From: an uncultured Chloroflexia bacterium
GTDB taxonomy: Bacteria; Chloroflexota; Limnocylindria; Limnocylindrales; CSP1-4
Direction: 5' to 3'
Assembly (NCBI GenBank): GCA_963752475.1
Contig: CAVVYR010000029.1
Coordinates: 160,001-224,000, forward strand
DNA length: 64,000 bases
Shown piece after piece: positions 9,177 to 15,583 of this stretch. Within the stretch, counting starts at the first letter, position 1. Every line of letters begins with the position of its first letter. The position numbers and the translations under genes were made by a program. The notes below the pieces were generated by a model. The model was given only the letters and a program-made list of their open reading frames with translations, was not told where the DNA came from and searched no databases.

Positions 9177-9209
9177 GCACATATGAGCAGTGGTTTGCAC
9201 GAATGAGCA
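9177..9209 (+). promoter_or_regulatory. Putative tandem operator for the SorC/DeoR regulator
   Basis: Direct repeat GCACATATGAGCA / GCACGAATGAGCA at 20-bp period, just downstream of the -10 and overlapping the ATG. Confidence 0.6.
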
Positions 9210-10156
9210 TCTCGGCCTCGGCGGGTGATACGCGCCTGATGCTTCGGGCTGCCCAGCTCTACTACCACGCGGACCTGACCCAGGACGACATCGGCAGGCG
9301 CCTGGGCGTGAGTCGCTTCAAGGTCGGCCGCCTGCTCGACCGCGCCCTGAAGGAGCAGGCGGTGCGCATCGAGATCGTCCATCCCGCCGCCCGCCTGGTA
9401 GCCCTCGAAGACGCGCTCGTCGAGCGCTTCGGGCTGACCGACGCGGTGGTCGTGGATGTCCCGGACACAGAAGATGAGCAGCTGGCCCGCGAGCGCGTGG
9501 CCGATGCCGCCGCGGATCACCTCGCCGCCATCGCCCCCACCGGCGTCATCGGCGTCTCCTGGGGCCGCACCATGATCGAGCTGGCGGCTCGGCTGCAGCC
9601 CGGCTGGACCAGCGCCGACCAGATCGTCCAGCTCAACGGCGCCATCAGCCGCTCCGCGCGGCCCACGCGCTACCAGGAGGTCGTCGAGCGCTTCGGCACC
9701 ACCACCGGTGCCGCCATCCAGTTGATGCCGGCACCCGCCATCGTGGGCACGCCGGAGCTGCGAGCGGCGTTGGAGGCCGACCCGTCGGTCGCCGTCCCGC
9801 TCAAGGCCGCGCGGAAGGCCGGCAGCGCCGTCTTCGGGATGGGCGTCATGGGCACCGACTCGGTCCACGTCACCTCGGGCTACCTCGACAAGCGCGACCA
9901 GCGCCGCCTGCAGAAGGCCGGCGCCGTGGGCGACGTGCTCGGTCGCTTCATCACCATCGACGGCCGGATCGCCCTGCCCTCGCTCGACGAGCGCACGGTC
10001 GGCCTGCCTCTCACCAAGCTCTGCGGCAAGCGCACCGTGGGCCTGGCCGCCGGTCCCGGCCGCGGCCCGGTCGCCCTCGGGGCCCTGCGTGCCGCCTGCA
10101 TGAAGACGTTCGTGACCGATGAGGCCACGGCTACATGGGTGCTCGCACATGACTGA
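9203..10156 (+). CDS. SorC/DeoR/CggR family sugar-phosphate-binding transcriptional regulator
   Basis: AAQLYY..LTQDDIGRRLGVSRFKVGRLL HTH; IGVSWGRT, GAVGDV, VTDE sugar-binding domain motifs. Confidence 0.92.
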   Translation: MSISASAGDTRLMLRAAQLYYHADLTQDDIGRRLGVSRFKVGRLLDRALKEQAVRIEIVHPAARLVALEDALVERFGLTDAVVVDVPDTEDEQLARERVADAAADHLAAIAPTGVIGVSWGRTMIELAARLQPGWTSADQIVQLNGAISRSARPTRYQEVVERFGTTTGAAIQLMPAPAIVGTPELRAALEADPSVAVPLKAARKAGSAVFGMGVMGTDSVHVTSGYLDKRDQRRLQKAGAVGDVLGRFITIDGRIALPSLDERTVGLPLTKLCGKRTVGLAAGPGRGPVALGALRAACMKTFVTDEATATWVLAHD

Positions 10157-10730
10157 TCCACGCCGACCCTCGGCCGACGAGGTCCGCGCGCTCGTACAGC
10201 GCATCGTCGACCAGACGCTCGACTCGGAGCCCCCGGCCGCCCCCGCCGGCGACGGCCGGATCGCAGTGGCCATCGCCGGCGACCACGGTGGCTGGCGCAT
10301 GAAGGACGCCATCGGCAGGTGGCTCGAGGAGCACGGCTATGCCGTACGGGACTGTGGCACGGACAGCGACGACGCGGTCGACTATCCCGACTTCGCTCAG
10401 GCCGTGGCCCAGCTGGTCGCGGATGGATCGTGCACGTGGGGCATCGTCGTCGATGGCGCGGGTATCGGCTCGGCCATGGCCGCCAACAAGGTGCCCGGCG
10501 TGCGCGCCGCCAACTGCCACGACATCTCCTCGGCTCGCAACAGCCGCGAACACAACTACGCCAACGTCCTGACGCTCGGGTCCGGCTTCCTGGGCAACGC
10601 CCTGGCACTCCAGATCGTCGAGACCTGGCTGGACACCGAGTGGGGCGCGGAACGTCACGGGCGCCGCGTCGAGAAGATCAGCGCGATCGAACACTCCTAC
10701 ACCGGCAGCCCCGGGGGAAAGGACCGATGA
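10149..10730 (+). CDS. rpiB: RpiB/LacAB-family sugar-phosphate isomerase with N-terminal encapsulation-peptide-like helix
   Basis: [41 protein letters not shown]-terminal [15 protein letters not shown]. Confidence 0.9.
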
Positions 10731-11617
10731 CTAGCACCACCAACGACCGCGACGCACTCGTCGAGGCCATCACCCGCGAGGTGCTGGCAGCGCTCGGTGC
10801 GGGCGGCCAGGGGGCCAGCCCCGACGACCCCTGCGCCAGCTGCCTGCAGGGTTGTGCGGCGCAGTGCGCGACCAAGGTGCGCACGCTCATGGACAGCGGC
10901 GCCGACCGCATCGAATACCACGGCGAGGCGGACGCCGTGCCCCTCGACCTGGCGCGCTTCATCGACCACACGCTGCTCAAGCCGGACGCCAGCGCGGCTG
11001 ACATCGACAAGCTCTGCGACGAGGCCGCCCAGCATGGCTTCGCCTCGGTCTGCGTCAACCCCACCTGGGTGCGACGCGCGGCCAACCGGCTGCGCGACAC
11101 GGACGTGGCGGTGGCCTCGGTCATCGGCTTCCCCTTCGGCGCCACGCCGTCGGACGTGAAGGCCTTCGAGACCCGGCGCGCGGTCCGTGACGGCGCGCGA
11201 GAGATCGACATGGTCATCAACATCGGCGCGCTCAAGAGCGGCGACCACGACCTGGTGCGCTCGGACATCGCGCGCGTCAGCGACGCCTGCCACGAGTCGG
11301 GCGCCATCAACAAGGTCATCATCGAGGCAGCGCTGCTGTCGGACGCGGAGAAGATCATCGCCTCGCGCCTGGCTCGTGAAGCCAAGGCCGACATGGTCAA
11401 GACGTCCACCGGCTACGCCAAGGGCGGAGCCACCATCTACGACGTCGCGCTCATGCGCGAGGCGGTCGGGCCCAAGCTGGGCGTCAAGGCGGCCGGCGGG
11501 ATCCGCACGGCCGAGGATGTACAGGAGATGATCGCGGCCGGTGCCACCCGCATCGGTGCTTCGGCCGGCGTCAAGATCGTAAGCGGACAGACGGGAGGCG
11601 CCAGTGGCGGGTATTGA
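10727..11617 (+). CDS. deoC: Deoxyribose-phosphate aldolase with N-terminal encapsulation peptide and Cys-rich extension
   Basis: [51 protein letters not shown] overlap with rpiB. Confidence 0.95.
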
Positions 11618-12227
11618 GCTAAGGGCATATTCATTCATCGACAGCCTGCAGGCCCAGTACGCGGCCTTCCTGGGCACCGTCGCGCAGGGCTTCCTGCCCC
11701 TGGCCGGTGATGCCTCGCTGTCGATCGAGATCTCACCCGGCATCGAGATCAACCGGCTCACCGACGTGGCCCTCAAGTCGACGAACGTGAAGCCGGGCAT
11801 GCAGATCATCGAGCGCTACTACGGCATGCTCGAGATCCACTCCCCCGAGCAGTCGGAGGTGCGCGCCGCCGGCGCCGCCATCCTCGACGAGATCGGGCTC
11901 AAGGAGACCGACCGCATCAAGCCCAAGGTCGCCTCGAGCCAGATCATCCGTCGCATCGACGACCACCAGGCGCAGCTCATCAACCGCACGCGCCACGGCC
12001 AGATGCTCATCCCCGGCCAGACCCTCTACGTGCTCGAGATGGAGCCCGCGGCCTACGCCGCGCTGGCCGCCAACGAAGCAGAGAAGGCCGCGGACATCAA
12101 CGTCCTCGAGGTGCGCAACTTCGGCTCCATGGGCCGCATCTACCTCGGCGGCGAAGAGCAGGACATCGATGTCGGCTGGCGCGCGGCCCTGGCCGCGGTC
12201 GACGGCCTGGAGGGACGCGACAAGTAG
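11604..12227 (+). CDS. BMC-T shell protein (circularly permuted, stacked-trimer type; CcmP/CsoS1D-like)
   Basis: [42 protein letters not shown] motifs of BMC-T(dp) proteins. Confidence 0.92.
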
Positions 12228-14425: not shown

Positions 14426-15018
14426 TGCCGCCTGCCGCCATCGAACCCGCGCTGGGGCTGCTGGAGCTGGAGTCGATCGCCGCCGGCATCGAAGCCGGCG
14501 ACGCCATGGTCAAGCGCGCACCCGTGGAGGTGCTGCGCGCCGGGACCGTACACCCGGGCAAGTACCTCGTGCTCGTCGGTGGCGACGTGGCCGACGTGCA
14601 GGAGGCCCTCGAGGCGGGCACGGAGACCGGCGGGCTGGCCGTCCGTGACACGACCTTCCTGGCCAACATCCATCCCGATGTCGTCGAGGGCGTGCGCGGG
14701 CGCCGCCAGGTCGCACAGGACGAAGCGCTCGGGATCATCGAGACGGCCACGGTGCCGGCGATCATCCGCGCCGCTGATGCCGGCCTGAAGGGCGCACAGG
14801 TTCGGCTCCTGGAGCTCAACCTCGCCGACGACCTCGGAGGCAAGGGCTACCTGCTCTTTGACGGCTCGGTCACGGACGTGGAGGCAGCCGTCGAGATCGG
14901 CACCGCCGCGGTCGGTGAGGCGCGCGGCCTGCACGCCCGGGTCATCGCCCAGCTACACACCGAGATGGCTCATGAGCTCGCCGCCGACGGCCGCTTTGCC
15001 TCGCGGGTGGCCGAGTAG
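14425..15018 (+). CDS. BMC-T shell protein (PduT-like single-layer tandem domain)
   Basis: Two BMC domains: ALGLLELESIAAG...GDAMVK...PGKY and ALGIIET...ADAGLK...GGKG. Confidence 0.92.
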   Translation: MPPAAIEPALGLLELESIAAGIEAGDAMVKRAPVEVLRAGTVHPGKYLVLVGGDVADVQEALEAGTETGGLAVRDTTFLANIHPDVVEGVRGRRQVAQDEALGIIETATVPAIIRAADAGLKGAQVRLLELNLADDLGGKGYLLFDGSVTDVEAAVEIGTAAVGEARGLHARVIAQLHTEMAHELAADGRFASRVAE

Positions 15019-15020
15019 CC

Positions 15021-15311
15021 ATGCAGCTCGCACGCGTCACCGGCACGGTCGTGGCCAGCACCAAGGTGCCCGGGCTGGAGGGCGTCAAGCTGCTCATCAT
15101 CCAGCCCCTGGACCGCTGGCAGCAGCCCAAGGGTGAGCCGGTCGTGGCCGCCGACGCGGTGCACATGGCCGGTCCCGGGGAGCTGGTCTACTTCGTAGCC
15201 TCGCGCGAGGCGGCGCAGGCACTCGAAGAGACGTTCGTGCCCGTCGACCACGCCATCGTGGGCATCGTCGACGAGGTCACCATGCTGCCGGGCGCGGAGG
15301 GCGGCACATGA
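15021..15311 (+). CDS. BMC-P vertex protein (EutN/CcmL) 2
   Basis: [27 protein letters not shown]. Confidence 0.93.
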   Translation: MQLARVTGTVVASTKVPGLEGVKLLIIQPLDRWQQPKGEPVVAADAVHMAGPGELVYFVASREAAQALEETFVPVDHAIVGIVDEVTMLPGAEGGT

Positions 15312-15583
15312 AGCTTGGGAAGGTCGTGGGCAACGTCGTGTCCACCATCAACACGCCGCACTTCGAACAGCGCACGCTGCTGCTGGTCGATCTGGTGGGT
15401 CCGGACGGGGCGCCGTCGGGCGGATACCAGATCGCCGTCGACAGCATCGGCGCTGGCGCCGGCGAGACCGTCCTGTTGCTCGACGAGGGCAACGGCGCAC
15501 GCCAGGTGCTCGACGCTCCGGGCGCCCCCATCCGCACGGTCGTCATCGGCATCGTGGACGAGGTCAGCAGCGACAGCGTCTGA
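15308..15583 (+). CDS. BMC-P vertex protein (EutN/CcmL) 3
   Basis: GKVVGNVVST, DSIGAGAGE, EGNGAR, VIGIVD. Confidence 0.93.
   Translation: MKLGKVVGNVVSTINTPHFEQRTLLLVDLVGPDGAPSGGYQIAVDSIGAGAGETVLLLDEGNGARQVLDAPGAPIRTVVIGIVDEVSSDSV

Follow-up and report, generated by a model that had tools for sequence, protein, structure and literature searches.

The 64 kb stretch of DNA analysed here (the window), part of a contig of about 243 kb from a Limnocylindria (Chloroflexota) bacterium, carries a ten-gene operon that, judged by gene content, is a complete and self-contained operon for a metabolosome, a bacterial microcompartment (BMC) of the sugar-phosphate-utilising (SPU) class. The locus appears to match the SPU3 subtype by gene order, enzyme content, peptide position and the clade of its stacking tandem-domain shell protein (BMC-Tdp). 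We consider it likely that it is an autoregulated SPU3-type operon whose compartment turns deoxyribose-5-phosphate (dR5P) into glyceraldehyde-3-phosphate (G3P) and acetyl-CoA and exchanges cofactors through the gated BMC-Tdp. The organelle would probably serve to break down deoxyribose phosphate from DNA. This type of locus and its missing recycling enzymes are already described in print, and it is no new kind of system. The genes and neighbouring features, with the match on which each is based, are as follows (AldDH, aldehyde dehydrogenase; DERA, deoxyribose-5-phosphate aldolase).

9203-10156, + strand: SorC/DeoR-family regulator, helix-turn-helix plus sugar-phosphate-binding domain (Pfam Sugar-bind PF04198, E 1.8e-49)
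10149-10730, + strand: RpiB-like protein with N-terminal amphipathic helix and Asp for the catalytic Cys (PF02502, E 1.5e-50)
10727-11617, + strand: DERA (DeoC) with an N-terminal extension of about 72 aa (PF01791; TIGR00126, 269.5 bits vs cutoff 117.3)
11604-12227, + strand: BMC-Tdp, stacking gated tandem-BMC protein, CcmP-like (CcmP 4ht5, E 6.5e-84; CsoS1D, 1.1e-52)
12291-12611, + strand: BMC-H hexamer shell protein (Pfam BMC, E 4.2e-30)
12670-12957, + strand: BMC-P pentamer protein 1 (Pfam EutN_CcmL, E 5.3e-29)
12971-14425, + strand: CoA-acylating AldDH with N-terminal encapsulation helix, aa 4-17 (PRK15398, 618 bits vs cutoff 403)
14425-15018, + strand: BMC-Ts, PduT-like, two BMC domains (PduT 3n79, E 6e-40)
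15021-15311, + strand: BMC-P pentamer protein 2 (Pfam EutN_CcmL, E 5.9e-26)
15308-15583, + strand: BMC-P pentamer protein 3 (Pfam EutN_CcmL, E 3.6e-23)
9146-9209, + strand: candidate promoter and operator (80% consensus of 51 aligned upstream regions; putative function)
7913-9106, opposite strand to the operon: chromate transporter (Pfam)
15643-16455, opposite strand to the operon: Rce1-like protease (Pfam)

The ten genes were found to be co-directional on the basis of the open reading frame (ORF) listing and Pfam, and NCBIfam gave the same names. Their junctions range from a 14-base overlap to a 63-base gap, with five of the nine overlapping, and opposite-strand genes flank the operon on both sides. 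An earlier sequence-only reading of this DNA had named ten tightly coupled genes of these families at 9203-15583 between opposite-strand neighbours, and was borne out by Pfam and NCBIfam, by the junction measurements and by Pfam on the flanks. Its gene coordinates held overall, except that deoC starts with the ATG at 10727 and not at 10730, and that rpiB, placed at 10119, most likely starts with the ATG at 10149, as in the relatives. The DERA alignments and the AlphaFold2 model were numbered from 10730 (without Met1), and residue numbers in them are one too low.

The cassette is conserved well beyond the window. Searching 185,579 species genomes with the AldDH sequence yielded 111 relatives, of which 80 were kept; the 62 loci at an AldDH identity of at least 74% belong to Limnocylindria, Limnocylindrales and unclassified Chloroflexota metagenome-assembled genomes (MAGs), together with one Acidimicrobiaceae MAG. 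In a tblastn map all ten genes stood in the same order in 54 of these 62 relatives. Among the other eight, six are cut by contig ends yet colinear as far as seen, and two are without an adjacent regulator match; several long-read MAGs show split matches resembling frameshifts. A quick version of the AldDH tree (75 rows; six of the 80 loci were left out for split or short matches) put the window among 57 Chloroflexota rows that form a clade with full support; the window's nearest neighbour is a Limnocylindrales MAG, and an Acidimicrobiales row is sister to the clade.

Two loci from Acidimicrobiales/Acidimicrobiaceae MAGs, L040 (5542-11130) and L064 (7215-12800), also have this cassette, but with no regulator and with a further DeoC-like gene some 2 kb upstream; their AldDH identity is 59-76% over the aligned pieces. 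The presence of the cassette there reflects either transfer between phyla or a binning error. In nine loci, among them L042 (12781-13242), a same-strand ORF of 153 aa begins 2 nt after the last BMC-P gene; it has an HELVH (HExxH-like) motif and no Pfam match, and is absent from the window.

The enzymes and shell genes found here are those that define the SPU class (DeoC, AldDH, RpiB and shell), in agreement with the class proposed earlier. The closest structure match of the DERA was 8qps (E 7e-76), with the catalytic motifs aligned: VKTSTG, GVKAAGG and EIDMV, carrying the Schiff-base lysine, the second lysine and the aspartate, are all kept, and the Schiff-base lysine motif is retained in 71 of 72 relatives. 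The proposal that DeoC belongs to the dR5P-cleaving family is supported by these residues. Its N-terminal extension, next to shell genes, is the hallmark of the DeoC-type aldolase (pfam01791) of SPU loci. In L005 (6994-8539) and L042 (7085-8561) two tandem DeoC matches lie between rpiB and the Tdp gene, and the aldolase may be duplicated there.

The nearest matches of the AldDH are the BMC-associated acylating enzymes 5jfl (E 2.9e-128) and 4c3s. Its FDNNLVC aligns with FDNNLPC of 5jfl, and the catalytic cysteine is kept in 80 of 80 relatives. The CoA-acylating AldDH of the earlier reading is indeed of the BMC-associated kind. The C terminus ends with the domain, being aligned to the end of 5jfl. 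Each of the DERA, the AldDH and the RpiB-like protein starts with a helix and a linker ahead of its domain. The hydrophobic moment of this helix is the highest of 471 windows in the AldDH, ranks 3rd of 180 in the RpiB-like protein and 48th of 282 in the DERA.

In the RpiB-like protein the Pfam domain begins at aa 50 of the longer ORF. The RpiB subfamily cutoffs were passed, in the case of TIGR01120 with 139.4 bits against a cutoff of 138.65. Its VVDGAGIGS aligns with ICGTGLGIS of C. thermocellum 3he8, which puts an aspartate in the place of the catalytic cysteine. This aspartate is kept in at least 66 of 69 relatives and the histidine in 56 of 70. In E. coli numbering Cys66 is replaced by Asp and His99 is kept, which is the pattern expected of SPU proteins, as the Cys to Asp change is reported for all SPU ribose-5-phosphate isomerases (RPIs) (Dwyer 2024). 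The RpiB-like protein is probably cargo or scaffold. A second RpiB gene at 63676-63999, cut by the end of the window, has no extension and carries GGSGTGE, a motif of the mycobacterial type with a Glu base, at the position of DGAGIGS; presumably it encodes the housekeeping isomerase.

The shell set consists of one BMC-H, one BMC-Ts, one BMC-Tdp and a BMC-P triplet, and contains the BMC-H, at least one BMC-Ts and BMC-P triplet given as the SPU shell feature by Dwyer 2024. No other shell gene was found within the 64 kb by tblastn with the ten operon proteins. The BMC-Tdp was barely detected by Pfam; its best NCBIfam match was CcmP, at 336.7 bits against a cutoff of 340 (about 3 bits short), and H. 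ochraceum stacking trimers were also among its structure matches. The gate residues of CcmP are Glu69 and Arg70 (Larsson 2017). The BMC-Tdp keeps Glu-Arg at this position (E70-R71, in 75 of 75 relatives covering the site) and is therefore of the stacking, gated kind. The earlier picture of a large gated stacked BMC-T holds for this protein (11604-12227); the second BMC-T is PduT-like and of a different kind.

In PduT the 4Fe-4S cluster motif is CP(G/S)K (Sutter 2024). At its position the BMC-Ts has HPGK (14551-14562, residues 43-46), and there is no cysteine in the protein. The site is covered in 74 loci: HPGK occurs in 52 and HPGR in 11, which together are all 63 close relatives, and the histidine at the former Cys site is invariant in these (63/63). 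The rest comprise two distant CPGK, one DPGK, three GCGK and five weak matches to BMC-H genes; CPGK is kept in the distant loci L071, where PduS is adjacent, directly before BMC-Ts, and L073. The histidine was dropped as a claim to novelty: loss of the pore cysteine in BMC-Ts proteins that do not adjoin MNdh has been stated by Sutter 2024. The MNdh/BMC-T(SE) electron-export module is accordingly lacking at this locus, which has no PduS and has HPGK for CP(G/S)K.

We also looked for the enzymes that would recycle cofactors. Among the 54 further ORFs of the window (at least 90 aa, GC3 filter passed; six without any family match) there was no PduL, Pta, acetate kinase, iron-containing alcohol dehydrogenase, PduS or TPI family. 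The 880 ORFs in the flanks of the 62 relatives, about 10 kb on each side, were clustered, and the 48 families present in at least four loci were scanned; none of these recurrent families was PduL, AckA, iron-containing alcohol dehydrogenase, PduS or TPI, 13 of the 48 having no Pfam match. Even the commonest flank gene family is present in no more than 24 of the 62 loci. PduS was present in three of the nine annotated distant loci (L061, L067 and L071). The co-encoded phosphotransacylase (PTAC) and alcohol dehydrogenase (AlcDH) of a complete core, as in PDU and EUT, were found neither in the window nor in the recurrent flanks of its relatives. The absence of PduL/Pta, acetate kinase and alcohol dehydrogenase noticed earlier is confirmed for the window and for the recurrent families in these flanks.

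This absence is the published norm rather than a peculiarity of the window. SPU loci were named as "incomplete core" in 2014, and seven SPU subtypes were defined by Sutter 2021. According to Dwyer 2024, nearly all loci of SPU1, SPU4 and SPU7 have PTAC, whereas AlcDH is reported there only for some SPU2, SPU4 and SPU6 loci. In Table S2 of Dwyer 2024 no PTAC is given for SPU3, SPU5 and SPU6; in its SPU3 column DERA, RPI and AldDH carry peptides at the N terminus and PTAC and AlcDH are lacking, and the AldDH peptide is C-terminal in SPU6 only. PduS/MNdh is found in 4 of 70 SPU3 loci, none of these four with AlcDH (Sutter 2024 SI Table S1). Loci without PTAC typically carry a BMC-Tdp, and exit of acetyl-CoA through the Tdp pore was proposed by Dwyer 2024. 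In the peer-review file of that paper a referee raised the crossing of the shell by NAD+/NADH without AlcDH or PduS, and the authors replied that cofactor exchange was possible but slow, the matter being open. The idea of the sequence-only reading that cofactors may pass through the stacked BMC-T pore was already in print, and what that reading took to be unusual, the lack of recycling enzymes, is a documented property of SPU3.

The locus was filed under SPU3 because its gene order, the position of the AldDH peptide and the absence of PTAC and AlcDH agree with published SPU3 loci. The window has the N-terminal AldDH peptide, a CcmP-like Tdp, no PTAC or AlcDH, and the order RPI-DERA-Tdp-H-P-AldDH-[PduS]-Ts-P-P. 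Read in reverse, the Sutter 2024 dataset row for Anaerolineae SM23_84, an SPU3 locus, gives RPI, DERA, an unassigned gene, Tdp, H, P, AldDH, PduS, pf05635, Ts, P, P, which is the order of the window plus PduS. In the main SPU3 locus of RBG_16_72_14 the locus tags A2V85_06840, 06845 and 06860 denote a ccmP-like Tdp of 209 aa, an H protein of 102 aa and a PduT-like Ts of 196 aa (Sutter 2021 supplement 3); the window proteins have 207, 106 and 197 aa, with the same order and spacing (Tdp-H-x-x-Ts). Among more than 5000 relatives of the window BMC-Ts, no accession tied the window to the catalogued RBG_16_72_14 protein. SPU3 Tdp proteins are labelled "ccmPlike" in the catalogue (Sutter 2021), and in the curated locus table each of the seven Actinobacteria rows is assigned to SPU3. 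Assignment to SPU6 was rejected, the AldDH peptide being N-terminal here and C-terminal in SPU6. An identical inventory in a catalogued subtype had been named beforehand as the finding that would remove the novelty, and this is essentially the case, because SM23_84 (plus PduS) and RBG_16_72_14 share the gene order.

The regulator and the region ahead of it bear on the substrate. The best solved relative of the regulator was B. subtilis DeoR 8r7y (E 1.9e-37), and B. subtilis DeoR is the repressor of the deoxyribonucleoside operon, with dR5P as its effector (NAR 2024). Upstream of the gene we noticed CTTGACA (9146-9152), followed after 16 nt by TACCCT (9169-9174), and a direct repeat of ATGAGCA at 9183-9189 and 9203-9209 with TGCAC (9196-9200) in between, the second copy overlapping the ATG of the regulator. 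The 51 aligned upstream sequences (the window and 50 relatives) have in common CTTGACA, TAnnnT 16-17 nt further on and an (A)TGAGCA direct repeat spaced 20 nt. A generic sigma-70 scan of the upstream region gave no promoter; the candidate rests on conservation instead. These conserved elements are a candidate promoter with an operator of a SorC/DeoR-type repressor.

Genes for purine nucleoside phosphorylase, pyrimidine nucleoside phosphorylase and cytidine deaminase were found downstream of the operon in relatives. At least one of them is present in 25 of the 56 relatives with at least 5 kb of downstream flank, and all three in 18; they lie on the opposite strand, 2-5 kb downstream, in L007, L013, L014, L018 and others. 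Together with the DeoR-like regulator, these genes support deoxynucleosides as the putative source of the substrate.

Taken together, the following course of events seems plausible. The DeoR/SorC-type repressor would sit, probably, on the ATGAGCA direct repeat just after the -10 element and would be released by a sugar phosphate. A shell would then be assembled from the encoded set, which comprises one BMC-H, one gated CcmP-like BMC-Tdp, one PduT-like BMC-Ts without an Fe-S ligand and three BMC-P proteins, around a predicted cargo of DERA, CoA-acylating AldDH and the RpiB-like protein (catalytic Cys replaced by Asp), each with its N-terminal amphipathic helix. The RpiB-like protein would most likely be a DERA-binding scaffold, in analogy to the SPU6 pair, for which DERA activity and a DERA-RPI complex were measured (Dwyer 2024). 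To judge by the enzyme families, dR5P would enter the compartment and be cleaved by DERA to G3P, which would leave, and acetaldehyde, which would be held inside and oxidised to acetyl-CoA with NAD+ and CoA. In the last and least certain step, acetyl-CoA and NADH would go out and CoA and NAD+ come in through the gated Tdp pore. With no PTAC, AlcDH or PduS linked to the operon and no cluster ligand in the PduT-like protein, this exchange, which follows the published proposal, would be the simplest interpretation.

Several points weigh against this interpretation. The locus is known from its genes alone, and the literature assigns no role to the RpiB-like protein. The nucleoside genes are missing from the window and from 31 of the 56 relatives whose downstream flank is long enough. 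The scan of the flanks covered the families present in at least four loci, and unlinked PTAC or AlcDH genes with targeting peptides may lie outside the visible 64 kb. The regulator reached only 216 bits against a cutoff of 420 on the NCBIfam DeoR equivalog model. It also has an asparagine at the position of the lysine in DeoR's QLKGG, in 56 of 56 relatives; this lysine would be the one that binds dR5P. Finally, exchange of NAD and CoA across the shell once per turnover would be slow, according to the authors of Dwyer 2024.

The strongest of the alternatives is that the core is in fact complete: a phosphotransacylase together with an alcohol dehydrogenase, or some other enzyme that oxidises NADH, would be encoded elsewhere in the genome with encapsulation peptides and be packed in the shell, where cofactors would be recycled. 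The visible DNA is 64 kb of a contig nearly four times as long, satellite loci are common in BMC systems (Sutter 2021), and AlcDH is carried by some loci of three other subtypes, as mentioned above. Neither the window nor the 48 recurrent flank families contained such a gene, and the published SPU3 column is without PTAC and AlcDH although the authors' counts include satellite loci (Dwyer 2024); a solitary gene with no shell-gene neighbour would escape such counts. On balance we regard a hidden complete core as unlikely, while giving it appreciable weight. Much less probable, in our opinion, is that another sugar phosphate is the physiological input, the RpiB-like protein then being a working isomerase, with Asp as its base, that either supplies DERA or has a rare substrate of its own. 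This protein is kept in every complete relative, with the Asp and mostly the His conserved, it passes the RpiB subfamily cutoffs, and the possibility was left open by Dwyer 2024. Yet the DeoC is far above the deoC equivalog cutoff, with its close match to a solved DERA and all three catalytic motifs, the RPI of SPU6 showed hardly any R5P isomerase activity, or none (Dwyer 2024), and nucleoside-catabolism genes lie near the operon in nearly half of the relatives with enough flank. That the operon is a decaying remnant which no longer builds a working compartment might be suspected from the lacking cofactor-recycling genes and the lost cluster cysteine of the BMC-Ts. We give this hardly any credence, as none of the ten ORFs is disrupted and their catalytic and gating residues are retained, the order is the same in the great majority of species-level relatives, and the histidine at the former Cys site does not vary among close relatives. 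The dR5P-degrading, cofactor-exchanging SPU3 compartment remains our preferred interpretation.

The extension of the DERA holds a feature of its own. After the helix at residues 4-24 there is a C-x2-C-x3-C-x3-C motif (10832-10867; C36, C39, C43 and C47), followed by a conserved KVR...GA.R segment. The motif is present in 61 of 61 readable Limnocylindria-type, Acidimicrobiales and Anaerolineae sequences, with a spacing of x4 in the two Acidimicrobiales ones, and is absent from seven BMC-DERAs of Spirochaetota and Holophagaceae (one of which is truncated at a contig end). In the DERA alignment, conservation reaches 90% or more for three of the cysteines. AlphaFold2 modelled the barrel with confidence (mean pLDDT 81.4), and pLDDT fell below 50 over most of residues 25-70, the motif region. 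A search of the ESM Atlas with the extension gave no usable match, and a Pfam search of the isolated extension with the E limit set at 10 produced nothing above noise (ApbA_C at 0.22; Fer4_3 at 0.54 in one relative). With phmmer, the 72 aa extension had 33 matches at E up to 1e-3 among 1.84 billion representatives. The best one, P0121 (3544 aa with about 34 identical Ala/Glu-rich tandem repeats), was rejected as a composition and repeat match; all others are of at most 358 aa and match from their own N terminus, and of the two inspected P0128 proved to be a DERA and P0133 is apparently one with a frameshift. The motif is not mentioned in the main text of Dwyer 2024, and a full-text literature search found no mention of it either. 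The four cysteines might conceivably bind a metal or an iron-sulfur cluster that serves core assembly or as a redox outlet for NADH, but we consider this doubtful, and improbable rather than merely uncertain. If true, the motif would do so in SPU3 compartments, which have neither AlcDH nor electron export by PduS/PduT.

Further along the window, positions 19404-36734 form a dense phosphate and polyphosphate neighbourhood with Ppx/GppA, PPK2, PPK1, CYTH-CHAD, a phosphate ABC transporter and PhoU, and a cluster of arginine deiminase, ornithine carbamoyltransferase and carbamate kinase lies at 22561-26134.

The locus is a clean and compact example of one of the most widespread and least studied bacterial organelles. 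Its host belongs to Limnocylindria, an uncultured group represented here by MAGs, and a literature search for Limnocylindria or Ellin6529 with "microcompartment" found no paper; the addition to host range is a minor one. How NAD+ and CoA are regenerated without PTAC, AlcDH and PduS is a question already posed, and called undetermined, in the field (Dwyer 2024 peer-review file; Sutter 2024). The ten-gene cassette, kept in at least 54 species, is suited to heterologous expression and permeability tests. Three small leads emerge from it, namely the DERA cysteine motif, the invariant histidine in the PduT-like pore and the candidate operator.

In comparison with known systems, the locus is most like SPU3, with which it shares DERA, RPI and AldDH, all with N-terminal extensions, the lack of PTAC and AlcDH, a CcmP-like Tdp, a PduT-like Ts, one BMC-H and three BMC-P proteins, the gene order of SM23_84 and RBG_16_72_14, and hosts among Chloroflexi and Actinobacteria. 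It is without PduS, as are 66 of the 70 catalogued SPU3 loci, and its DERA and RPI are separate genes, whereas they are fused in 20 SPU3 loci (Dwyer 2024). The SPU6 locus of Chloroflexi bacterium GWB2_54_36 resembles it in DERA, Cys to Asp RPI and AldDH, in the lack of PTAC and PduS, and in having a Tdp and three BMC-P proteins; however, the regulator of that representative is GntR-like and its Tdp belongs to another clade, in place of the SorC/DeoR-type regulator and the CcmP-like Tdp found here. With the PDU and EUT metabolosomes the locus has in common an aldehyde-releasing signature enzyme, a CoA-acylating AldDH with a targeting helix and a shell from BMC-H, BMC-T and BMC-P proteins, but it is without PduL/PTAC, AlcDH and PduS/MNdh, and its PduT-like protein has no Fe-S ligand, a carboxysome-like gated Tdp being present instead. 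As in the DeoR (dra-nupC-pdp) regulon of B. subtilis, a SorC/DeoR-type regulator adjoins the DERA gene and, in relatives of this locus, a pyrimidine nucleoside phosphorylase gene is nearby. The regulator here falls below the DeoR equivalog cutoff, its candidate operator is a direct repeat of another sequence and, unlike in B. subtilis, the pathway would be enclosed in a shell, as far as the genes tell.

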